A DNA stretch of 64,000 bases from assembly GCA_964016885.1 (NCBI GenBank), contig OZ024740.1:344100001-344164000 (forward strand). The letters run 5' to 3'. The position numbers were made by a program, and so were the translations under genes. The notes under the pieces are model-generated. The model had not been told where the DNA came from, did not search any database, and was given only the letters and a program-made list of their open reading frames with translations. This document shows positions 2,926 through 61,100 of this stretch, one piece after another (position 1 is the stretch's first letter; every line of letters starts with the position of its first letter). The stretch is from Eledone cirrhosa (Eukaryota).

Positions 2926-3063
<138 letters not shown>

Positions 3064-3280
3064 CGTGTGTGTCAATTGAAATGTTTTTTTAGAATCTACA
3101 CCAGCTTCTTGTTCTTTACACTTATCTCTACCCCTCTGTGCTCTCGTCTCCTCCTTTTCCTTTTGCATATCCCGTCGTCTCTGCCCCCCTTTATCTATCT
3201 ACCTGTCAATCTAAATTGCTTACTGGAATGAGTGAGTGATCGAAAGCGAGCGAAAGAGATGGATAGATGATATATATATA

Positions 3281-3965
<685 letters not shown>

Positions 3966-3970
3966 TAGAG

Positions 3971-4050
<80 letters not shown>

Positions 4051-5299
4051 AAATGTTGTGTGGGGTAGTGAAATATAACTGCTTATGAAAAGGAAAATAA
4101 ATGCTTATGTTCAATTCTACATTAATTGAGGAATTGTTTGCCTGCTCATGACACACTGACCATACAACGTTATGGCTTGAACTTGAGCCCGAGTAACACT
4201 ACGCCATTTTAATTTTCCCTAGAAATGAAGTTGACGTCTGTTTATCCTGTCTTTCTCTCGCAATTGTTTATGGATTCTTCACTGAACAGTTGTTATAAGA
4301 ACCGTGGGCAGGTGCAATACACATTTATGCTTATATCACTCATTGTGTGTTTTGTATGTAATGATTCATTCTCCTAATTGTCATGTACGTTTCTTAATTG
4401 AGGCATTTCACTTCATGTTTCACTCCTACTTTTCTGCAATTAATAAGGCTTGTTTTTGCTTTTGTTATTGTTGTGTAGCCTTAGATATGTGTTGGTCCAT
4501 CTTGACAAGAACTATGACCAAAGCAATGTTAACATGATCCACAATCTTTTATTAGGATACAGTGAATTTAAGAAGGTGTGGTATGAGAGAGCATTTGTTG
4601 CTCTTACTAGCAAATCATGTGACTAATAGTAGCTCACTTTTAAGACAATGAAGATAGCCAAACTAACATTTTAATGAGTATTGCAGAATGGCAGTTTTTT
4701 CCTGGATAAACCACAAGCACAAACACATCCACATTTGCTATTATATAATGCTGTATATCGTTTTTGTGAAAAATACATTACTGCCATACAAAGATTTCAG
4801 TTTGTGAATTATCAGTTCAAAAATCATTCAATAAGAACATAGTTGAACATATTAATTCAAATAAAAATCAAAATATCATTAGTGTAGTCAAAACATATAC
4901 CATTAGACATTCCCCAGAAATTTCCATTCTGTTACACATGGCATCCTCTCAGTCTGCTGAAATTTATACGCAGATATAAGATGCATTTGGCAGTGTTCCG
5001 CGGACTGAGTACGCGGATATAGCAGAAAACGGTTTTTCATAGTTTGGCAACTTTCCTGCATAAGGTTGTTTATTTTATTTTGGCTGATAACCTATATATT
5101 TATTAATAAAGATCAGTTAATTCTTTGATCTGTTTCTGGCGGAACCGGATCATCCCTGGTAGGTGTTCTAGGCCCCGAGAAATAGATGGTAAAATATCAT
5201 AATTTAGTAATATTCAACATTCTCATGCGGTTACTGATGTAGCTAGATTCATAGATTAAAATACAGACAGTGAGACATGAACTGATTATATATGCTTCA

Positions 5300-5895
5300 A
5301 TATAATCTTTATTCTGAACCACGCTCTGTTAGTGCTACTGATAATTGGATAATTGATATTAGCCTGTGAAACCCAGACTTTATGCAAATTGGGATCTCGA
5401 AAAATGTATTGTTTGCAAAATATATAAATAAATATTAGCTTGTCTACCTTATCACGTAACCGATGATGGAATAGCGATCTTGAAATAGAAGCATTTGTCG
5501 TCCTCATACATTTACTGAGCGAGCTGTGTTATGATCACAGCTTAAAATGCCACTAGCGAGACTTATGCATTTTTATTACGCATAAGCATTTTATATATGG
5601 TTCTATATACGCCTCTATCTGAATCGCGTTCTGTTAGCATTACTGATAATTAATATTAAACCGCGAGACCCGCCCTATATGTACATGTGCATCTCCAAAC
5701 ATATATTATTTACAATATATATATATATATATACGATAGCTCATCTCCCCCAGTCCAATGTGAATACAACTAAATAATGAAAGAGTAGCGATCTTGAAAT
5801 ATAATACGCCTCTATTCTGAAGCAGGCTGTATTAGAGATACTGTTTAATTAATAGGCATGGTATATCAGACTAAATGAGGAGAATCTCCAATTCA
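5300..5895. repeat. Old degenerate tandem repeat (three copies starting ~5308, ~5613, ~5810)
   Basis: Recurrent blocks tctgaa..ctgttag..tactgataatt and tagcgatcttgaaata. Confidence 0.55.
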
Positions 5896-5984
5896 TTATA
5901 ACACATACGCACACACGCACACGCACATGCACACACATATATAAATACGCAAGTTTATATTTACTAAAATATAGCATCAATTTC

Positions 5985-19779: not shown

Positions 19780-21018
19780 CGGCGATGAATTAGTTTTGCG
19801 AGGTTTTTTATATGAAATCGTGTGTCGAAACAGATATTGTTATACTTGGGGAGGGTCATATTTGCGTAATATTGCCAGAATTAATAACAGAACACACTCA
19901 CTGTTTGGTTGGTTTTCGCTTCTCGCTGTCTTTTATTATATCTGCGATCTAACTTACTCGGTCCTCAATGTTGCCATTGACTGACCGGCGGTCAAAAATA
20001 ATACAGATACAATATAGACACAAACACATATATATATAGTTTACATAATTTACATAAATCTTTCGTTGCACATCTGCAACATCGTCAGTGGTGTTATATT
20101 CATTGTTCCTCCTGTTGTGTTGTATGTCTACGCCATTTTTTTTGTTCAGTCTGTCTATATATTTATTTATTTATTTGCTTGTTTGTTTATCTTATTTTAT
20201 TTTGTCTTCTTTGCGCATGCGTTTGCGTGTGTGTATAGTGTTATGTGTGATGTGTGACTAGTGTGTATAGTGTTGTGTCTGCTGGGTGACTAGTGTGTGT
20301 TTATGTGCTTGTTGTTATTGTGCTTGTGTATGTATTTATTTATCTTATTTTATTTAATTTTATTTACTTATTTATACTTCTCTTAGGTCAGTGTTGTTTG
20401 TTTGGGTGTTGTTGTTGTTCCACTCATTCTTTCTGTTTAGCTTTGGTCTTCTAATTTCTATTTCACTGGCCTCTCTGATTTGCCTATCTGCTGGGTCATT
20501 CCTATGTTTAGATATTATTCTAATTTCTATGTTGTCTATGTTACCGTCATGTTGTTGTCTAGCATGTTCGTATAGTACTGACCCGTTTTTTCGTCCTTTT
20601 AGTTCCCCCCAGTGTTGGTCTATCCTTTCACCTATGCTACGAGCTGTCTCACCTATGTATGTTGTTGTCATGTTTCTGCAAGTACCCTCTGTACATCTTA
20701 TGCTATAGACTACGTTTCTAGTTTTACAGTTTATCCGGGGGTTCACCTTACATATGATACACTTCCTATTGGTACAGTGGGTTTTCTTAAAAGGGTAGGT
20801 TTTGCTGATCAGGGATTTTATGGTGGTTCCTGGCTTTTCTACCACCTTTATTTTTAAGTGGGTCCTTCTCAGGGCCTTTCTACACTGGTTAGCTAATTTC
20901 CCTCCAGGGGTGGCGTCCACAAACATGACACTCTGATATCTCTGGTTGTCGTACCATGATGTGGCCTTCCCTATCTTATGTCTAGCCCTATCTAAGCTAT
21001 TCCATGATTTGCTCCTGT

Positions 21019-21021
<3 letters not shown>
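19778..21021 (-). mobile_element. 5'-truncated Penelope-like element: end of thumb, GIY-YIG endonuclease (ORF 20372-21021), 3' UTR and terminal module
   Basis: NVVYSIRC..YIGETARSIGERIDQH..RQIREA..LN motif with a Cys-rich linker. Frame intact; same family as 58117-61925; (TA)n flanks. Confidence 0.9.
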
Positions 21022-21085
<64 letters not shown>

Positions 21086-22492: not shown

Positions 22493-24418
22493 TAAACGTT
22501 TGAATATGTATAATAAAGCGAAAACAATGCAGGTATGGACATAGAATAAAGAATGCAAATGCAAAAGATATTGTTGACAATTAGTCTTTTACCTTAGATT
22601 TATTTAAATGTCCTTAATTTTTGAGATAATATCTCTTCTTCGGAGGGAAGTAAAGCGGTTAAACCAGTGTTCTAAATAGCTTGCCAAGTCATGCTGACAG
22701 GAAATGGTATAGAGTATCTGTTCTATCTCTAATGTCAAAGAGTTAAGGTTAGGTGGATAAAGAGTAGTCTCCATTTAAAAGGTTTTTTTTTACATGCCTG
22801 TTTAAGTGTGTGGGAGAATGCATGAAGGTGTAAGTATGTGAGTGTGTGTGTGTGAGTGTGAGAAGATATGTCTATACGTAAATGTGGGGGATAGATGTTA
22901 TCTCGTGTTAGAACTTGTCTTTGTGTGTGTATGTGTGTGTGAGAGAGAGAATAAGTGGAGGTGTAAGCGTGTGTGTGTGTGTGTGTGCATGCGTGTGCGT
23001 GTGCGTGTGTGTGCGTGTGTGTGTGGGGGGATGTGTGTAAATATGGGGCTAAAAGCTGTATCAAGTTATAAATTGGGTGTTGAGATCTAGTCTATTATTG
23101 ATTGGTGGTTGTGTTTTGTCTATAATTATTGCTTCCTTAATTCTAAGATTGCCGAGGTTTCTTTCTTTAGTTTCTATCCTAACTGTTATGGTTTTGTCGG
23201 TGTTTTTGCATTTAACTAGGTATTTCTTAAATGAGGAAGCGTTAGTATTGAGGTGTTCTTTTATTCTTATGTGGAGTGGTCTGGTGGTGCTACCTACGTA
23301 GAAGTTGCTGCATTTGTCACACCCTAGTCTGTATACGACGTAAGCCTGGTGGCATAGGTCTGTGTCGCTGATGGGGCAGTTGGCTAGCCTGCAGCAGTTG
23401 TTATGTCTGGTGGAATGTCTTTTGGTCAGCTGTCCGCCTAGAGAAGGACCTGAGTGGGCCAGTTGGATATCTAGTCCCTCTTGTCTGATAGCTCTGTGGA
23501 TGGCTGTTGTTGTTTCGTCACTGAAGTGTGGGAGCTTCAGGAAGCAAGTGTTAGTGCCTCGGGTGTGGTGTACTCTGTTCTTTCTGGCACGGTTTGTGGT
23601 GGATGTCGTGTATCCGTTCAGTTTGAGTACTTCCAGGAAATGTGTGGTGTGTGTGTCTCGGTCTCTAGCGTCGGTGTATTTGTTCCGGATACGTGTAGTT
23701 CGTTCTTTATGTATCCAAACTTACCGCCGGCTGGGATGGCCGATCTGAAATGTACGAACAGGTCCCTGCTGGCGGCTTTTTTATAGAAGCAGGTGTGGAT
23801 GTTGCCTTCCTCTATTAACCTGAGTTGGAAGTCCAGTAGGGATAGGGATCCGCGGTCATCGGGGTGTTCCATGCTGAACTTTATACTGGCGTCCATGCTG
23901 GAGAATGTTGTGTATATTTTATCTGCCTCCTCACGGGATGATGTAAGGATAAGTATGTCATCTACATACCTTCTTCACCCGATATGTGACCAGTTCTAAC
24001 ACGAGATAACATCTATTCCCCACATTTACGTATAGACATATCTTCTCACACTCACACACACACACACTCACATACTTACACCTTCATGCATTCTCCCACA
24101 CACTTAAACAGGCATGTAAAAAAAAAAACCTTTTAAAGGGAGACTACTCGTTATCCACCTAACCTTAACTCTTTGACATTAGAGATAGAACAGATACTCT
24201 ATACCATTTCCTGTCAGCATGACTTGGCAAGCTATTTAGAACACTGGTTTAACCGCTTTACTTCCCTCCGAAGAAGAGATATTATCTCAAATATTAAGGA
24301 CATTTAAATAAATCTAAGGTAAAAGACTAATTGTCAACAATATCTTTTGCATTTGCATTCTTTATTCTATGTCCATACCTGCATGGTTTTGGCTTTATTA
24401 TACATATACAAACGTTTA
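22493..24418 (-). mobile_element. 5'-truncated Penelope-like element (RT YVDD to GIY-YIG, frameshifted) with inverted pseudo-LTR
   Basis: RYVDD at ~23957-23971, LSLLDF, YKKAAS..HFRSAIP and VVYRLGCDKCSNFYVGSTTRPLHIRIKEH. 22493-22915 is the reverse complement of 23992-24418. Confidence 0.92.
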
Positions 24419-32219: not shown

Positions 32220-32864
32220 CGAGCGGTGCTTTTAGAACAGAGAAGCTGAAGGAAGCTATAGCCACAGAACCATAGCTAGAGCTTCCAAGGCGAACAGTGT
32301 TTTTAGAATAGCGAAACCGAAGGAAGCTATAGCCACAGAACCATAGCTAGAGCTTCCAAGGCGAACAGTGCTTTTAGGATAGCGAAACCGAAGGAAGTTA
32401 TAGCCACAGAACCATAGCTAGAGCTTCCAAGGCGAACAGTGTTTTTAGAATAGCGAAACCGAAGGAAGTTATAGCCACAGAACCATAGCTAGAGCTTCCA
32501 AGGTGAACAGTGTTTTTAGAATAGCGAAACCGAAGGAAGCTATAGCCACAGAACCATAGCTAGAGCTTCCAAGGCGATCAGTGCTTTTAGGATAGCGAAA
32601 CCGAAGGAAGTTATAGCTACAGAACTATATCTAGAGCTTCCAAGGCGATCAGTGCTTTTAGGATAGCGAAACCGAAGGAAGTTATAGCCACTGAACCATA
32701 GCTAGAGCTTCCAAGGAGAGCGGTGCTTTACAGCGATATCGAAAGAAGCTATAACCATAGAAGCACAGCTAGAGCTATCTAGGCGAGCGGTGCTTTTAAC
32801 ACAGCGAAGCCAAAGGAAGCTATAGCCACAGAACCACAGCTAGATCTTCCAAGGCTAGCGGTGC
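32220..32864. repeat. 71-bp minisatellite, about 9 units
   Basis: CGAACAGTG recurs at 32291, 32362 and 32433; the terminal units are more diverged. Confidence 0.95.
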
Positions 32865-33232
32865 TTCTTCTACATTCTACTTTCTTTTAGTTGGCAAGAC
32901 CAGAAGAAGAAAAAAATCTTCATCTTGGCGTAAGGAGATTGAAATCAGAATAGTCTTTGCTAATTAAAATTAGCAGTTATACAACCACTTAGACAGCGCA
33001 AAATTTGTACCACACTACCACTTAGACTGCTAAAAATTTAAAGCATTTTAAAGTTATAATGCAAATATTAACCTTTGGAATCTTTATGGTCTTACTTACT
33101 TTACACTTACGTATTGATTTACTGAAGTATTTTATATTGTTGGATATCGGGTTCGGTTATTCTATCAATTAGTAAAGACTAAAATTTACTGTTATTTATT
33201 TAATTATTTTCATTTCTATCTGTACAAATAGC

Positions 33233-33263
<31 letters not shown>

Positions 33264-33306
33264 AAGAAGAAGAAGAGGAGGAGAAGGAGAAGGAGAAGGA
33301 GAAGGA

Positions 33307-33428
<122 letters not shown>

Positions 33429-34497
33429 TACAACATGTTCCACAAGAGGAGTGATGTCGATAGACTCTACCTAAGGAGATCTGAGGGTGGAAGAGGTCTT
33501 ATCAGCATAGAGGACTGTGTTCAGATGGAGAAAAACAACCTATACAAATACGTGACCTATAGTAAGGAGCCAATGCTCAGAACTGTACTGAAGGAGGGGA
33601 CAGTAGGCCAGGGGATGTCCAAGGAGGAAATAATATCAAGGAGGAAGAGCAGCCTTAAGGGAAAATCCTTTCATAGTACCTTCTTTGAGAAAACTGAATT
33701 TAGAGATCCACAGACATGGAACTGGTTGAGAAGAGGAGACCTCAAAAAGGCTACAGAAGGAATGCTAATGGCTGCGCAGGAGCAGGCCCTCAAAACGAAG
33801 TGGTTGAAGCACCATATTTACAAGGAGGAGGCTAGCCCACTGTGCAGGATCTGTGGAGAGAGAGAGGAGACTGTGGCTCACATTGTGTCCGAGTGTAAAC
33901 ACCTAGCCCAGACCCACTATAAGGGCTGGAGACACGATGTGATGGGCAGGGTGATCCACTGGCACCTGTGCAAAGTAAACAATTTACCACATTCTGAGAA
34001 ATGGTATGAGCATAGGCCAGAGGCGGTGATGGAGAACAATCAGGTGAAGGTGCTGTGGGATTTTAGGATACAGACGGACAAAAAACTGGAACACAATAGA
34101 CCTGACCTGGTGGTTGTGGACAAAGAAAAAAGATCGTGTCTGATTGTGGATGTGGCCTGCCCTTTCGACACGAGAGTGCAAGAGAAGGAGAGGGAGAAAA
34201 TTAACCGATACCAGGACCTAAAGTGGGAGGTGAAAAGGATTTGGAACTGCCATGAAGTCAAAGTGATCCCGATTGTCATAGGCGCACTGGGGACTATCTC
34301 CAAAAGTTTCCAGGGATGGTTAAAGAAAATCGGCCCCTTCACGCTTTTTGGAACGCTTCAAAAGGCATGCTTGCTTGGAACAGCAAGAACCCTCCGATAC
34401 GTCCTGAATATCTGAGGCTGCAGGTAGTGGCTTGATATTCATTCCAACGGACTTTCCAGTTAACCAACATCAATGACTGAGATTCAAGGAATAAAAA
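33429..34497 (+). mobile_element. 5'-truncated R4/Dong-like non-LTR retrotransposon (thumb, CCHC knuckle, REL endonuclease; ORF 33435-34415) in (TAA)n
   Basis: RLYLRRSEGGRGL, CRICGEREETVAHIVSEC, RHD, RPDLVV..IVDVACP..EKINRYQDL and PIVIGALG. (TAA)n directly on both sides; 326 uninterrupted codons. Confidence 0.92.
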
Positions 34498-42989: not shown

Positions 42990-43026
42990 TAGCAGAAAAC
43001 CGCGCGCTGGGCGGTTTTTCTGCTAG
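42990..43026 (+). mobile_element. Helitron-like 3' terminal hairpin ending CTAG|T
   Basis: TAGCAGAAAACCGC-gcgctgg-GCGGTTTTTCTGCTAG followed by T. Confidence 0.5.
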
Positions 43027-43123
43027 TATATATAATATATATATATAAACCCGTAGAGCAAATATACATTATAAGTTCAGATTTAAGTTTAAGCAAAGAA
43101 TCGCTGCTTTCACCCTTAACTGA

Positions 43124-43942
43124 TTTGGACATCTCCGTCGCCATCGATCTCTCTCACCGCTCCCGCATCACCTCCGCCTTCTTCAAACCCACTGACTCCC
43201 ACTCCTACCTCGACTTCACCTCTTCCCACCCTAGACACACGAAACACTCCATTCCCTACAACCAACTCCTCCGGATCCACCGGCTTTGCAGCCGAGATGC
43301 TGACTTCGAGACTCAGGCCCTCTCTCTAGTCAGCCATTTCATCCGGAGAGGTTACCGCCCCTCCCTCGTCCCCGCCGCCCTCGCAGTCCACCGCTCCACC
43401 GCCCTCGCAGTCCACCGCTCCACCGCCCTCACCCCACGCCCCCACACCCCCACACACCCACCCAACGTCTCCCTTTCCCTTCACCCACCTCCACCCCCTC
43501 CACGCACCATCATCCGCCTCTTCCAACGCCTCCTGTCCAATCCCTCCACCCCCCATCTTCCCATTACTACTCCTCCCCTCCTCCAAACGCGCGCGAAACC
43601 TCCGCTCCATCCTCGTCCGCAGGTCCCTACCTCCAACCCCCGCCCCCGTTGCCCCCCGGTTTCCTTCCCTGTTACAGACCTCGCTGCCACACCTGTCCCC
43701 ACATCACCAACACCACCACCTTCCAGGGTTCCAATGGCCACTCTCTCTCTGTCCGGCATGCCTTCCGCTGCACCTTCTCCAGCCTCGTCTATGGATTTCG
43801 CTGCACGGAGTGCAACGCAACCTCCGTCGGACAGACTAGAGTCCGAAACGTTAAGACCCTCTTCCTGCTATATCAGGCGTTAACCAAATATATCCCTTCC
43901 ATATACTGTACCGATTGTGTTATTTCTGTTTACCTTTTACAT
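43124..43942 (+). mobile_element. Internally deleted Neptune-like PLE (RT end, thumb, Cys linker, start of GIY-YIG) joined to a family D 3' end
   Basis: FKPTDSHSYLDFTSSHPRHTKHSIPYNQLLRIHRLCS and PCYRPRCHTC..LVYGFRC..VGQT; jumps to GTCCGAAACGTTAA at ~43836. Confidence 0.85.
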
Positions 43943-45051: not shown

Positions 45052-45258
45052 TACACATATACATATGTATAGATATATTTGTGTATATACATTTATATAC
45101 ATATATACATATATATGAGTATACATGTTTGTGTAGAAGTATATGATAGCATATATGTGTATCTGTCTATTTATGTGTGCTTATATGTAGTTTGGGCAGA
45201 CGACGATACCGGATCTAAATGAGTGCCATTCCCTTATCTATCTATTTATCTATCTATC

Positions 45259-45294
45259 CCACTTTTGATGCCCTAGTGGCAAATAAAAGAAACA
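45259..45294 (+). mobile_element. 36-bp Tx1-like 3' tail between (TATC)n tracts
   Basis: CCACTTTTGATGCCCTAGTGGCAAATAAAAGAAA matches the 3' ends at ~48090-48125 and ~48899-48935. Confidence 0.85.
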
Positions 45295-45322
45295 TATCTA
45301 TCTATCTATCTATCTATCTATC

Positions 45323-48123
45323 TTAGCCTCAAATAGAAATAGGAAGGAAACGGAGCTGGTAGATAGTGTAGAAGAGGCAATTAGAAGCGGCGACGTGGCC
45401 AGAGTGCTAGCGTCGAGAACGGCCCTGGGCCAGTTCTTCGAAGCGAAACACGAAGGCTGCATCGTCCGAAGCAAAATACGTGCTCTGGGAAACGAGGGGA
45501 CCAAAGCTGTTAGCTGGGCCCGCGTGACAGAAGCCAAAAGAGGGAGCAGATCCACTATCCGGTCTTTGCGAGACCAGGATGGACGGGTGATCATTGAACC
45601 TAAGCAGATGTGCGAGGCTTTTCAAAAGCAATTTGCCGGATTGTTCGGAAGGGGCGGGGAGTCGGTTGGGGATGTGGACTTCGGTCCATACCTCGACGGC
45701 CTGCCGCGTCTCTCGGACAGGGAGGCGAAGTCCTGCGAGGAGCCGATTTCACCCGCTGAAATAGAGGACGTGCTAAGCCAATGCGGCAAACGCAAATCCC
45801 CGGGTCTCGATGGTCTTCCATACGAACTGTATCTAGCTATGCCGGACTTGTTCCCCGATCTCCTCGAGGCGGTCTACTGCAACTGGCAACAGAACGGGAG
45901 AATTCCCTGTGCTGTGACCAAGGGCGTAGTCAGGCTAGTGAGGAAGGACGAGAACAAGGGGGACGATATAAATAATTTCAGGCCCATAACTCTGCTAAAT
46001 ACAGAGTTACAGATTTTGGCCAAGGTGCTAGCAAAGAGGTTGGCGCTTGTCGTGGGCAACCTGGTGGGAGATGCGCAGACATGTGCTATCCCGCCCAGGT
46101 CCATCCACGACAACCTCCACCTCATGCGATACATCATAGAGAGGTTTGGGAACGAACCCGGCTTTGGTGGGGCCCTGATCAACTTGGATCAATCTAAGGC
46201 GTTCGATAGGGTCGACCATGGTTACCTGGATGCGGTGCTAGCGGCGGCCGGCTTCGGACCCGTTTTCAGGGGCTGGATCAATGCCATGCAGAGCAGCCGC
46301 ATCTGCTTTAGGGTCAAGGTGAACGGCTACCTCTCGGAGATTCGAAATCGCGCGGTCCATCCGACAAGGGTGCCCTCTCTCCTCCCTTCTGTATGTGATG
46401 ACTCTAGAGCCACTGCTGCGGAAGTAGGAGTTGTTGCAGGGCATCCCGTTGGAACGGGGATTGCGGAAAGCGGTGTCGGCCTACGCCGACGACGTAACAG
46501 TAATGGTGTCGACGGCCTCGGAAATCGGGGCGGTCGGCACCATACTGGAGGAGTACGAAAGGTTTACAGGGATTAGATGAACCGGGACAAGTCGAACAGT
46601 CTGCAACTCGGCACGTGAAGGGGCAGATTGATGCCCTCCGATGGCGTCGTCGGGCGCTAGACGGAGGGCTCGGTGAAGTTGCTCGGGGTCTGGTTCGGAC
46701 CAGACCTCCAGGTGGAGAAGAACTGGGGTGAGGTAACGAAAAGGATTTTGCACTGACCCAGAAGTGGGCCGAGTGCAAACTGTCCCTGAAAGGTCGGGCG
46801 GAGGTGGCGAACACTTATATAGCGTCCGTCATCTACTACCGCCTGACCGTTGTGCCTTGCCCAGGGGAAACGCTCGCCAAAATGGAGCGCGCACTCTTCC
46901 AATTCCTTTGGAAGAAACGGGCTCCTATGGTGAGGAGATCCATCTGCTGTCAACACCCTTCGAAAGGAGGGCTGGGGATGCCGTGGCTAATGATGCGTAA
47001 TCACGCATTAAGGCTACGGCACATCCAGGTATTCCTCACCGGTCAGCTGGTGTGGGCCCCGTTTGTGAGGCGAGCCTTTCCCAGACTCGTCTCACTCACC
47101 GAGCTGCAATCCTGGGTCAAGCAAAGACCGAGAAAACTGGGCGCCTAGCACACCGAGTGTGCCCAGGCGCTCACGGCTCTCTGGCAGGCGGACCCGGCTG
47201 TCAGTGGAGAATCCACCTCGTAATTCTATAGAGGGCTGGTGGTTAGCAGTGCGACGACGCCCTCGGAGAAGCCCTAGGCATGGAGGAAGACGAACTGGCC
47301 AACCTGTTCGGTAGGACATTCAGCCTGGGACCCATGGATAACTTCCAGAGGTCCCTGGCCTGGCAGTTCTACAGAAGGGCTCTGCCCGTTCGAGAAAGGA
47401 TCTACAGACACTGGCGCCCGGGTAGGGACCCCTCGAAAAAGATCTGTCCCAGATGCGTGTGCGACGAGGAAACCGTTGCACACGCATTGGTACACTGCTC
47501 GGGCATTGCCGATCTATGGGGTTATGTCGAACAACTGCTGTCAAGGGTGGGACCGATCCGGTTGACCACCGAGTCTATTGTAACGATCAAGCCGCCTCCC
47601 CTCTTCAAAAACGAAGGAGAGGCGGTGTTTCTGTGCGTAATAGCCATGGCGAAAGAGGTTGTATAGTGGACGCGTCTGAAAGGACTGAGGTCAGACACCT
47701 TTCTCTCTGGCCAACAACTGGTCCGTTTCTTCCGATATCATTTCGTAAAAGGATCAGGATGGAGAGAGAGGTGCTGCACCCCAGCCGTTTTTATGAAAGA
47801 TGGGAGAAAGTGGCGAGAATGGCCCGTGTGAATGGGCCTTCATTCTACATCAGACTATAGGTGAGGAAGATGAAAGACCAAGGGAGTACCCCCTCTCTGT
47901 GCTCCTGAGGAGAAGGGTTGCACACTTTTTTCCGGGGGTGTGTGCGACCCCCCAAGGCGCCTCCTCTCTATTGAGGATTTTGTTATAAATTTTATTTTGT
48001 TACATTTTATTTTATTTTTATATTTTGTTATTGCCTCCTCCTTATTAAGGACGCCTTGTTATGTAAACTGCCCCCATTGTACTTGTCGCACTTTTTGATG
48101 CCCTGGTGGCAAATAAAAAGAAA

Positions 48124-48125
<2 letters not shown>
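45323..48125 (+). mobile_element. 5'-truncated Tx1/L1-clade LINE, ORF2 pseudogene (RT plus C-terminal CCHC)
   Basis: KSPGLDGLPYE, NFRPITLLN, LDQSKAFDRVDH, RQGCPLSP, YADD (46482), KGGLGMP and CPRC..EETVAHALVHC. Several stops and frameshifts; (TATC)n on both sides. Confidence 0.93.
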
Positions 48126-48189
<64 letters not shown>

Positions 48190-48935
48190 GTTCGAGAAAG
48201 GCTCTACAGACACGGACGCCCGGGTAGGGACCCCTCGAAAAAGATCTGTCCCAGATGCGTGTGCGACGAGGAAACCGTTGCACACGCATTGGTACACTGC
48301 TCGGGCATTGCCGATCTGTGGGGCTATGTCGAACAACTGCTGTCAAGAGTGGGACCGATCCGGTTGACCACCGAGTCTATTGTAACGATCAAGCCGCCTC
48401 CCCTCTTCAAAAACGAAGGAGAGGCGGTGTTTCTGTGCGTAATAGCCATGGCGAAAGAGGTTGTATGGTGGACGCGTCTGAAAGGACTGAGGTCAGACAC
48501 CTTTCTCTCTGGCCAACAACTGGTCCGTTTCTTCCGATATCATTTCGGAAGAAGGATCAGGATGGAGAGAGAGGTGCTGCACCCCAGCCGTTTTTATGAA
48601 AGATGGGTGAAAGTGGCGAGAATGGCCCGTGTGAATGGGCCTTAACTCTACATCAGACTATAGGTGAGGAAGATGAAAGACCAAGGGAGCACCCCCTCTC
48701 TGTGCTCCTGAGGAGAAGGGTTGCACACTTTTTTTCGGGGGTGTGTTCGACCCACCAAGGCGCCTCATCCCTATTGAGGATATTGTTATAAAATTTATTT
48801 TGTTATATTTTATTTTATTTTTATACTTTTATATCTTGTTATTGCCTCCTCCATATTGAGGACTCCTTTGCATGTAAACTCCCCCCTTTGTACTTGTCCC
48901 ACTTTTGATGCCCTGGTGGCAAATAAAAAGAAAGT
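48190..48935 (+). mobile_element. Further 5'-truncated copy of the same Tx1-like family
   Basis: Near-identical to 47388-48125; bounded by (TATC)n. Confidence 0.92.
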
Positions 48936-48951
48936 TATCTATCTATCTATC

Positions 48952-49912
48952 TTCGAGTGCCTACAGACGCTCACAGCCCTCTACCAAGCGGAAACGGTAA
49001 TTAGCGGAGACTCCACTTCGACATTCTATAGGGGATTAGTGGAGGATAAGTGCGACGACGTTCTCGGGGAAACTCTAGGCATCGAGGAGGACGAACTGAC
49101 CAGTCTTTTCGGGAGGACTTTCCGTCCAGGGTCTATGGATACCTTCAAGAGGTCTCTGGTCTGGCAGTGCTACCGAGGAGCTCTACCAGTTCGAGACAAA
49201 ATCTACAGGCACGGACGCCCTGGCAGAGATCCTGCCAAAAGGACCTGTCCAAGATGCGAGCCGGACATCGAAACCGTTCTGCACGCAATTGTTCACTGCC
49301 CAGGGGTGACCGACCTGTGGAATTATGTCGAACAGTTGCTGTCACGTGTGGCACACATCCAGTTGTCAGCCGAGTCCATCGTGAGGATCACCCCGCCGCC
49401 TTCATTTAAGAAGGAAGGAGAGGCTGTTTTCCTCTGTCTGGTGACTATGGCGAAAGAGGTAATATGGTGGACGAGGTTAAGAGGACTGAGGGCAAACACC
49501 TTTCTCTCCGGACAACGACTTACCCACTTCTTTAAGTATCACTTCAAAAGGAAGGTGAGAGTGGAGAGAGAGGTGCTACACCCCAGTAAATTCGCTGAAA
49601 GGTGGGGGAATGTGGCAAAAATGGCCCGAGTGAATGGGCCTTCTCTGTATATAGACCTGTAGGTTGAGGAAGATAAACAGAGGGAAGACAGGAACACCTA
49701 CAAAACGGGTTCCTGGTATTGAGGGTTATTCTATCTACGGGGTGTAAAACAACCCTGCAGTAACGTTCCCCTCTACTGGGACTTCAATTGTTATTTTATT
49801 ATATATAGTTTATTGTTATTTATTAAGGTTAAAGTTATTTTTATGTAAAACCCCCGCCGTCACGTCTTGTAATGTCCCATTTTTGTACGCCCCTGTGGCA
49901 AATGAAGAAAGA
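48952..49912 (+). mobile_element. 5'-truncated copy of a diverged Tx1-like subfamily
   Basis: Open frame to 49662, homologous to the other copies but with many substitutions and a different 3' UTR. Same terminal GTGGCAAAT motif; bounded by (TATC)n. Confidence 0.92.
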
Positions 49913-49926
49913 TATCTATCTATCTA

Positions 49927-50023
<97 letters not shown>

Positions 50024-58116: not shown

Positions 58117-61100
58117 TTGTTATACTTTGGGAGGGTCATGTTGCCAATAAGAAACACACGCACCAGTCGCTTTCACTTCAATATATTATAATAAATTTAT
58201 AAATTTAGGAATTTATAAATTTCCGGTTGGTTGGTTGGTTCCACAACCAGATGGTTGTTTATATATTGTCAAAGTTCTTTCGTCACACATTCTGTGACCT
58301 CTTCAGTGACTGGGGTTCTTTTCTTTGTTTTTTGTGCCTCTCCTTTGTTCTGTCCTACGCCATCTTGTTTTTGTGTGTGTGTTGTGTGCTTAGTTTGCGC
58401 ATGTGTTACATCCGGGTGTCTGTGTGTGTTTATATTCGTTTATTTATTTGCTTATTTACATGTTACTGGTTGTTTGTTTGTTCTATGTGTGTGTGTGTTT
58501 TCATTTCGTCCTTAATTGTAAGTTGTCATGTTGCTGTTCCACTCATATTTTCTATTTAATTTTGGTTGTAATTCATTTATGTTTATTGCCTCTGTGATTT
58601 GTCTAAACATTGCGTCTTTTCTGTGTGTAGATTCTATTTTTATTTCTATGTTCTCTAATTTACCCTTATGTTCTATTTTAGCATGTTGGTAGAGTACATA
58701 TGATTCTCTACTATATTGAAGGTCTCGCCAGTGTTCATTTTTCCGTTCCCCTATACTACGAGCTGTCTCACCAATGTACACTATATTTTTATCCCTACAT
58801 TGTCCTTCAGTACATCTTATGCTATATACTACATTTCTAGTTTTACAGTTAATATGGGGGCTTAATTTACAGATTATACATTTCTTATCTATACAGGGAG
58901 TCTTTGAAAAGGGTATGTCTTGCTAATAAGTGTTTTTATGGAGGTACCTGGTCTTTCTACTATCTTAATATTGAGTTTATGTTTATCTAGGGCCCTTCTA
59001 AATTTGGAAGCTAATTCACCTCTAGGGGTTGTATCGATGAACCTTACACTCTGGTATTTATTGCTATCATACCATGAGTTTATTCTATTAGCCTTATTCC
59101 TAGTTATTTCTATTCTATTCCAAAATTTGCTCCTATACAAGGGGCAGGTCCCATTTGTATCATTATTTACCATTTTTTTCCATTTGGTTCTGGCTCCTCT
59201 ATACACTCTGATTTTATCTCTCTGGTTGTAACCAGAGAACTGCATACGGTGGATGAAGTGTTGTATGTGTCTCTCTAGTTCTTCGGGGTTGCACATGCGG
59301 GACACGTTTCTCATCACCCGTACCAAGTCCGCAATCAGTATGTTGATTTTCGTATGGTCCGAAATGGCCGAGTTTCGGTGGATCAGATGTTTGGAAGTCA
59401 TGGGTTTGGCATAATGGGAATGGAGGATTTGTTTTTTGTTATTAATGGTATCTAACTAGAGCTCTGTGTCTAGTACAGGTAATCGATGGTTGGGGTGTTT
59501 GCTTGGGTAGTCTATAGTAACTCTAATACTCTGGTGGATGGAGTTAGCTATTTGCTGGATGCTTTCCATTGTGTTTTTCTCTAATTTCTGACTGTTCTCT
59601 AGTGGGGGTGTTTTAACTACGATGTTTATATCATCAACGTAGCGGGAGTACATTATCAGGGTTAAGGGGTCTTTAATTGTTCTTTAAGTTAAAGTTTAAG
59701 TCTACTGTCCCATCATACCATGAATAAGTTAGCTATGTCGCCTGCAATGCTAACACCAATGGCTGCTCCCTCCTATGTTTTTCCATTAAATTTGAACATA
59801 TGTTCCTTAAGGGTTAATTTTATGCTAGATCCCACCGCATGTGCAATCATTTTCTTTAGTTCATCGTGGTTTTCGGGCGTCCGTATTGCTCTGGTCCACC
59901 CGTTCCATCTATCTTTGTGTGTTTTCTTGGCCATTGAGGTAATGGTAGGTGGTCTGCCTCTTGCTGGTCTTGTAGGCCACAGGTTGCTAAGGTCATATGT
60001 GTCTAGATAATTATTACTATAGGTAAGTTTAAGTAGGAGTCCCAGCTCACTGGTATCAATCCTATGGAATTCAACATTGCTCTCACTGATCATTTCTACG
60101 CATTTCTCCACAACAAAAGCCACGTCAATAGATGGATATAGGGACACAACATCCATACTACCTATTATGCAGTTTGTTAGGTCCCTAGATCGGTTACTCT
60201 CGCCGATTCTGCTGAGGAGGTCCTCCATGCTGTCAATACATCTGGGGCCATTTCAATGATGGGGTCTATGATCAGGGAGAGGAAGTAGAACAGTCTGTAG
60301 TTATTAGCAATGTTAGCTCCACAGACTGGCCGTGTTGGTGGTCCCGTAACAGGGTCAATGCTCGTTTTATGGTCTTTTCGAAGCCCATACAACGCTGGCA
60401 CGTCATTGTTCCAGGCCTGGAAGTTGTTGGCAGTCCTTTTGTTGGGCTGAATTATATTTGTCCACATCACCATATGAGCATTGAGGGCTTTTTCTCTATC
60501 CTCATGCTCTTGTGGTGTTACTTCTCTTGTGTTAGTGATGTGGGGTTGCATTGCCTGGATGTAGTTTGGCAGACTGTCAACCGACATTCTGCCAGAATTG
60601 TCTGTTGGAAAGCATGCTATCACTCTATTATGCGAGCGCTGCATGAGCTTACGCAAGCCATTTGCAGATTTTTCTCCCAGTTTCTGGGCCTCCATTCTAT
60701 TATGCTTCTTGCTATACTGTTCTATAATATTTCTAAGTTTAGATCTAGCTATACTAAATTGTGCTTCTGTTTGTTCATCGGTCTGCAACGGCAATTGCGT
60801 GCGTTTGTTAAAAGCTAAAGTCGTGGCGTGGACTCGTCGCAGGTCGAACGACTTATCGGAGAGATTATAAAAAGTAGAGTTCCAGGCTGCTGCTTTATGT
60901 GTACTAGTGCTATTGTTATTGTTAGTTGTGTTGTTTCTATTTCTATTTCCACCAACAGCCTCATGTCTCTCATTATTACTCCTGTCTCTTTCCTCTGGCT
61001 CATTGTTATTATCTACTCTATTTTGTGTGTCTGTGTGTTCGTCTTGGCTATTTTCTCTGTCCATAGTCTCCCTTCTCCTTTCAATCCTATTACCTTCCCT

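Follow-up and report, generated by a model that had tools for sequence, protein, structure and literature searches.

Four LINE copies between TATC arrays

The window analysed here is a 64-kb stretch of the Eledone cirrhosa assembly (contig OZ024740.1, positions 344,100,001 to 344,164,000). It contains a stack of four copies of a Tx1-like long interspersed nuclear element (LINE), all on the + strand and separated by arrays of the tetranucleotide TATC. The components of the stack are as follows, with coordinates numbered within the window.

45235-45258, +: left TATC array, read from the sequence as six units, one of them a variant; it borders the whole stack on the 5' side
45259-45294, +: copy 1, 36 bp, the 3' terminus alone; aligns with the terminal 35 nt of reference A, a full-length copy
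45295-45322, +: spacer (TATC)7, by array count
45323-48125, +: copy 2, 2803 bp, 5'-truncated, subfamily A; 95% identical to reference A positions 2939-5726
45323-46576, +: the longest open stretch within copy 2, covering the N-terminal portion of the reverse transcriptase (RT); Pfam RVT_1, E 6e-11
48126-48189, +: spacer (TATC)16, longer than a target-site duplication
48190-48935, +: copy 3, 746 bp, subfamily A by sequence comparison
48936-48951, +: spacer (TATC)4, matching the typical target-site duplication length (median 17)
48952-49912, +: copy 4, 961 bp, subfamily B; 94.5% identical to reference B
49913-49932, +: right flank (TATC)5, running on into (TC)n and (TA)n

The sequence-only reading of this DNA had described four separate 5'-truncated copies in a single orientation, with TATC at every junction, a conserved terminal motif and no poly(A), and our analysis bears this out for all four copies (36, 2803, 746 and 961 bp). 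The window contains exactly five perfect TATC arrays of at least three units, and these are the five junctions of the stack. Arrays of at least six units of other repeats are far from rare in the window (130 of TA, 41 of CA/TG and 14 of GA/TC), and none of them is found at a junction, as had been claimed for the (TA)n, (CA)n and (GA)n tracts.

Copy 2 spans open reading frame 2 (ORF2) from the linker via the RT to the zinc-binding region, followed by the 3' untranslated region (UTR); its reading frame is broken by frameshifts and stops and the ORFs are fragmented. In copy 4 the C-terminal frame of ORF2 is open up to position 49662 and gives a zf-RVT match (E 5e-5) that lies under the curated cut-off. 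Identity is 94.5% between copies 2 and 3 and 74% between copy 4 and either of them, which agrees with the earlier statement that one copy represents a diverged subfamily and that simple tandem duplication does not explain the stack. An origin of copy 3 by tandem duplication of copy 2 is rejected as well, since each is closer to copies elsewhere than to the other: their 3' UTRs share 89.7% identity, versus 96.6% (copy 2) and 98.2% (copy 3) to the best outside copies. These two copies are thus separate insertions. In addition, the four ends represent four terminal variants, or sub-lineages, each of which was found again among the sampled genomic loci; that of copy 1 has 100% matches at L065, L077 and L103. 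On the basis of these comparisons the stack is made up of four separate insertions. Copy 3, whose best match outside the stack has 98.4% identity, is likely the youngest, being closest (98%) to copies elsewhere. The excess length of the (TATC)16 spacer would be due to slippage or to RNA-borne units. Considering the fact that the internal arrays serve as both 3' and 5' flank, the window alone provides one independent 5' flank, and a test of targeting therefore needed genome-wide copies.

Junctions across the genome

The genome-wide searches covered an assembly of 3.0 Gb in 1796 contigs. A first look yielded 1825 matches to the end of copy 3, 3057 to the end of copy 4 and 1267 to the 5' end, which are candidates and not copy numbers. 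Genome-wide we count 849 occurrences of an exact 28-mer from the end of subfamily A, and in 701 cases (83%) it is followed by two bases and then TATCT. Within loci L001-L230 we recovered 180 distinct termini outside the window, of which 143 belong to the TATC lineage, and 35 to sister families (see below), with two left unassigned. Around the 143 ends of the TATC lineage, the flank begins with TATCT in 122 cases, TATCTAT in 112, (TA)4 in one and poly(A) in none, and position +1 is a T in 99%. Similarly, the 3' flank begins with TATCT in 56 and with (TA)4 in three of 75 consecutive copies on contig C1. As a target, (TA)n is therefore rare and used at low frequency genome-wide. At five loci (L255, L266, L268, L270, L273) the last few bases of the element are repeated or lost at the 3' end, which is consistent with slippage at the start of reverse transcription.

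For the 5' flanks a null was derived from 13,320 windows of 30 nt in 20 evenly chosen 10-kb stretches, of which 1.6% were TATC-rich and 8.4% TA-rich. Two overlapping samples of copies were compared with it. The identity-ranked sample started from 112 termini of subfamilies A and B and retained 88 in which the 5' end was closed and identity to the respective reference reached 88% or more; a TATC-rich 5' flank was present in 62 of these, and in 36 of the 59 solitary truncated copies. As this sample was partly ranked by identity, we also took a positional sample, consisting of the first 75 consecutive matches on contig C1. Here 42 copies (56%) had a TATC-rich 5' flank, including 32 of the 63 solitary truncated ones, whereas (TA)n at the 5' side did not exceed background (6/75) and (TC)5 occurred in the 5' flank of one copy. 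The sequence-only reading had proposed such a tabulation of both flanks against a null, and had named TATC confined to the 3' end with random 5' flanks as the outcome that would speak against it; in both samples the solitary truncated copies show the opposite. Where a family is called target-specific once more than 20% of its flanks are of one type, as worded in PMC4494074, the values here are 83% of 849 3' flanks and 56% of 75 5' flanks.

Target-site duplications of at least 10 bp were present in 37 copies of the positional sample. Informative duplications numbered 13 among these 75 copies, against a mean of 0.6 and a maximum of three in 500 shuffles, and 15 among the 88 copies of the identity-ranked sample. 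The 25 informative duplications start at the element junction and measure 13-30 bp (median 17), mostly 13-23 bp, with two longer ones in pure repeats. Upstream of the insertion point, positions -4 to -1 read TATC in 20, 19, 17 and 15 of the 25; downstream, positions +1 to +7 read TATCTAT in 21-25 of 25 per position. Off-consensus targets (TGTC, TATA, TACC, TATT) appear alike in both flanks, and because these deviations are kept on both sides, the first bases after the element represent the target and not a fixed tail. Several targets contain barely two units, so it is a short motif that is recognised, which arrays present serially. Judged from these alignments, the recognised site is TATC/TATCTAT (the slash marks the junction), also outside arrays, rather than the array itself; in random DNA, 61 of 156 TATCTAT heptamers lie within arrays. 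For comparison, 200 kb of random DNA contained 418 (TA) arrays of at least six units versus 14 (TATC) arrays of at least three. The earlier claim that the lineage targets (TATC)n thus stands as a genome-wide preference for TATC, the reality of which is strongly supported by the flanks, and has to be adjusted in that the site is a short motif that also occurs outside arrays and in that (TA)n is used on rare occasions.

One could argue that TATC is an element-encoded 3' tail, that insertion is near-random, and that stacks arise via template jumping or duplication. Around 19 of the 75 positional copies, which lack a 5' signature and in some cases have long 3' TATC runs, would suit such a model. 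Nevertheless, we regard it as highly improbable, given the TATC-rich 5' flanks of the solitary truncated copies (32/63 versus 1.6%), the informative duplications that open with TATC itself, the 3' flanks that reproduce deviations of the target, and the fact that stacks combine sub-lineages that are 74-95% identical.

According to a raw count, another member of the lineage lies within 200 bp of 24 of the 75 contig C1 copies, and downstream neighbours are co-oriented in 21 of 21 cases. The co-orientation follows from a target that is stranded and is duplicated by each insertion. (TATC)n arrays constitute hotspots because they offer the site every 4 bases. The proposal that insertion regenerates the target is supported by the duplications, by TATC on both flanks and by the co-oriented neighbours. 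Passive accumulation, in which insertion is unselective and copies survive best in tolerant, microsatellite-rich regions, has been put forward for Drosophila Waldo-A and -B (PMC3812793), and the present genome is indeed very rich in microsatellites. For this lineage we find it scarcely credible, considering the fixed phase and orientation of the junctions (+1 T in 99% of 143 ends, 21/21 neighbours), the background level of (TA)n at the 5' side (6/75 versus 8.4%) and the clean separation of sister families into other repeats. For most copies, both the tail-encoded and the passive model are contradicted.

Some further observations concern the 5' ends and the smallest insertions. Three of the 75 positional copies have inverted 5' segments (L296, L298, L335), and in L068, a full-length copy, the first ~30 bases are duplicated in reverse at the 5' junction. 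Apparent ~9-bp remnants of the element 3' terminus precede TATC arrays in two of the 20 random 10-kb stretches (L112 near 9488; L119 near 5914-5944, minus strand). Very short insertions may be common yet uncounted.

How the insertion site may be chosen

Taken together, the stack probably represents four independent insertions of a Tx1-like LINE ending at the site defined above, likely since its APE endonuclease cuts the GATA strand at this motif and reverse transcription is primed from the cut. The first nick would separate A from G in the GATA strand, and the second would follow some 17 nt further downstream. Target-primed reverse transcription would proceed from the nick in the GATA strand, with the position of that nick set mainly by the endonuclease, the specificity of which is considered the chief determinant of the target according to PMC4494074. 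The RNA would likely extend slightly into the donor's TATC at both ends, which would help both junctions; at the 3' end, pairing between RNA and primer would account for the exact junction and the absence of poly(A). Each insertion would duplicate about four repeat units, so that the target is kept on both sides and stacks of one orientation can grow.

Full-length copies give an indication of what the RNA carries. Each of 30 full-length 5' ends that were inspected is embedded in TATC-type DNA. In copies with a 3' flank that quits the repeat early ("early-exit" copies), the last 10 bases 5' of the element are TATC in 10 of 15 full-length versus 13 of 72 truncated copies (p 4e-4), the full-length pairing of L326 being uncertain. 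Full-length copies have about 5-15 extra TATC-like bases past the duplication; in L193, L206 and L210 a clear duplication is followed by 9-14 such bases before the element. The RNA of full-length copies therefore likely starts within the donor's TATC, as far as can be read from these junctions, and with RNA-borne TATC at the 5' end it is the truncated copies that carry the targeting argument.

The main rival to a nick that is set by the endonuclease is selection of the site by RNA pairing. A loosely specific enzyme would then nick AT-rich DNA, only those nicks would be extended whose primer pairs with the donor UAUC at the RNA 3' end, and the family would inherit its target from the location of the master copy. 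Conservation is strongest over the seven primer-side bases (+1 to +7) and weaker at -4 to -1, which favours this model. Moreover, AATAAA stands some 7-11 nt ahead of the end of the element, and given the established spacing of polyadenylation the transcript should enter the flank. The extra 5' TATC on full-length copies and the different targets of families whose endonucleases are 77-82% identical point the same way. However, positions -4 to -1 could not be read by 3' pairing, and TATC is favoured there all the same (20, 19, 17 and 15 of 25), although arrays inflate this figure. In addition, off-consensus target bases are retained in the 3' flank, and overwriting of that flank by RNA has left no asymmetry, as mismatches favour the consensus three times on each side. 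Finally, the non-array sites L012, L019, L063 and L074 are without extra units between element and duplication. In view of this, we consider it unlikely that pairing alone selects the site.

Sister families with other targets bear directly on the choice between enzyme and RNA. Families E and F, at 70-75% nucleotide identity to the TATC lineage, served as an internal control: their ends are followed by ATTATT in 32 of 35 and by TATCT in none of 35 cases, and their 5' flanks are ATT-rich in eight of 20. For family F, an additional 30 of 30 copies end in (ATT)n, many with open ORF2 frames of 1152 amino acids. Both families also stack head-to-tail (L058, L116, L131-L160, L211-L225, L231-L260). In family G, 30 copies spread over 12 contigs all end in a 72-bp repeat at one and the same phase of its unit; these copies are 99.8-100% identical over 1747 nt, with 5' ends that all lie beyond the sampled loci. 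It is a very young family with an open ORF2 of 1152 amino acids, arranged in head-to-tail arrays (L341, L344, L347-L349, L355, L359-L388). A search of Rfam with six loci of the 72-bp repeat gave merely three miRNA matches, below threshold. In family H (L342, L345, L389-L408) TATAT is present at the end in 18 of 20 copies, mostly within a degenerate ~30-bp repeat; two of its copies have the same 5' junction. Relative to the endonuclease of subfamily A, identity is 77% for G, 81% for H and 60% for F. A quick tree of 19 rows placed G and H within the group of TATC families and left the ATT families outside it, an arrangement that suggests a succession of targets from ATT via TATC to longer repeats.

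A number of these findings weigh against a nick set by the endonuclease at TATC. Without either a TATC-rich 5' flank or a duplication are 27 of the 75 positional copies; on inspection about eight of them were judged to be mis-called junctions, and about 19 (25%) stay unexplained, some combining a long 3' TATC run with an unrelated 5' flank in a tail-like manner. The endonuclease of the 72-bp-repeat family is 77% identical to that of A and has the same hairpin tip, and its target is another one. Comparison of the endonucleases of these families revealed no protein determinant of the target. Full-length 5' junctions would not be independent evidence of targeting if the RNA carries TATC. Copy length was considered as the cause of a missing 5' signature and had no effect (26/39 versus 17/30, p 0.46). 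The tip of the endonuclease hairpin, S/T in TATC families and I in ATT families, was dropped as a determinant, since the difference amounts to a single change in the phylogeny and S is also the tip residue of the 72-bp-repeat family.

A more speculative reading, which we hold to be possible though doubtful, is that all these families belong to one octopod LINE radiation with a rapid turnover of targets, in which (ATT)n gave way to (TATC)n and this in turn to the 72-bp and ~30-bp repeats, by way of the donor flank on both RNA ends. With that flank at both ends, a family would inherit and reseed its own target, and the process would be RNA-assisted and self-reinforcing and would also feed GATA microsatellites. 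The endonucleases form a graded series of identities (60-82%).

Affinities of the element and other features of the window

Full-length copies of subfamily A are ~5.7 kb long and carry ORF1 and ORF2. ORF1 gives a weak zf-CCHC match (E 0.03). ORF2 comprises, in this order, an N-terminal APE endonuclease, the RT and a C-terminal zinc-binding region; in the genomic copies L195 and L199 the matches are Exo_endo_phos (E 8e-9), RVT_1 (E 2e-24) and zf-RVT (E 4e-5, below cut-off), and in the A-type copy L356 ORF2 is open over 1153 amino acids. This domain set and the separate ORF1 are those of an APE-type non-LTR (long terminal repeat) retrotransposon of the L1 group; the variable 5' truncation, the fixed 3' end and the target-site duplications agree with that. 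Contigs of four sequencing runs, aligned to the 3' part of the element, showed related copies and gave no junction information; no RNA run was listed as containing the element.

The nearest named proteins are from Argonauta (63%) and Sepia (57%). In phmmer searches, proteins named YTX2 or TX1 149 kDa, which are automatic annotations, scored highest (208-247 bits), followed by human L1 ORF2 (121), plant L1-type proteins (94-99) and R2 (51-75). The RT tree had 38 rows, with one of 29 outside proteins dropped for short overlap and vertebrate L1 not among the rows. An octopod clade joins an unnamed ENA/JGI clade with support of 100/100, the vertebrate Tx1-named proteins form a clade of their own (100/99), and both attach at one unresolved node without being joined. 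The label "Tx1-like" used by the sequence-only reading is thus justified by the protein scores, with membership of the Tx1 clade itself no more than putative. The Argonauta protein fragment P0002 nests within the TATC clade, both in this tree and in that of 19 rows. This placement suggests that the TATC lineage is older than the split between argonauts and octopuses.

Several APE-type non-LTR elements likewise insert in specific microsatellites (PMC4494074, PMC3812793). In the Tx1 clade these include the teleost Kibi in (TC)n and Koshi in (TTC)n and crocodilian families in (TTCC)n/(TTTC)n (PMC4494074). The targets of Kibi and Koshi are not those used here, where the 3' flanks begin with TATCT, and in the RT tree, which held no Kibi or Koshi rows, the octopod clade was not joined to the vertebrate Tx1-named proteins. 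Other examples are Waldo (ACAY)n and Mino (AC)n of insects and Dong (TAA)n (PMC3812793), and the NeSL-related, (TG)n-specific Togen (PMC4640811). The targets of these four differ from TATC, that of Dong being common to the ATT sister families. Waldo, Mino and Dong belong to clades other than that of the present lineage. SART1Bm, R1Bm and R2Ol are also target-primed and site-specific, with telomere or rDNA as target. SART1Bm requires three target repeats (PMC7265360), resembling the roughly three-unit site found here, but needs a poly(A) tail, which the present insertions lack. The targeting of R2Ol is helped by annealing of read-through RNA that carries flanking target sequence (PMC6530143), as we propose for the present element. 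Human L1 ORF2p, the best match among solved structures (121 bits, about half the score of the Tx1-named proteins), has the same APE-RT architecture and makes target-site duplications. It differs from the present element in its poly(A) tails and in targeting T-tracts (PMC1950540).

No published report of a (TATC)n/(GATA)n LINE target was found in the literature, a search that did not extend to Repbase and Dfam; the main text of PMC4494074 has no TATC/GATA target, and PMC13282606 counts L1-Tx1 families in Octopus vulgaris, with a tally of 80 L1-Tx1 consensus families, without naming a target in the sections consulted. Both target and host are new for a strategy already known from Kibi and Koshi, and (GATA)n joins the list of LINE targets. 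How APE-type LINEs acquire and change their specificity is still unsettled, and loop grafting did not transfer it (PMC1950540). In the present genome at least four targets are used by closely related families, several of which have intact ORF2 frames and copy numbers in the hundreds or above; these provide material for separating enzyme from RNA as the determinant of the target. On the practical side, GATA marker loci in these animals often adjoin a retrotransposon and should be used with caution.

Elsewhere in the window, the ORFs at 20372-21085, 23061-23974, 42993-43883 and 58512-60252 are presumably fragments of Penelope-like elements, which they resemble in a putative GIY-YIG-type motif. 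The ORF at 33204-34415 we take to be the C-terminal part of another, probably RTE-like LINE; its 5' side adjoins (AAG)n(AAT)n arrays. A tandem repeat of 71 bp occupies 32226-32866, with nine copies and 89% matches.

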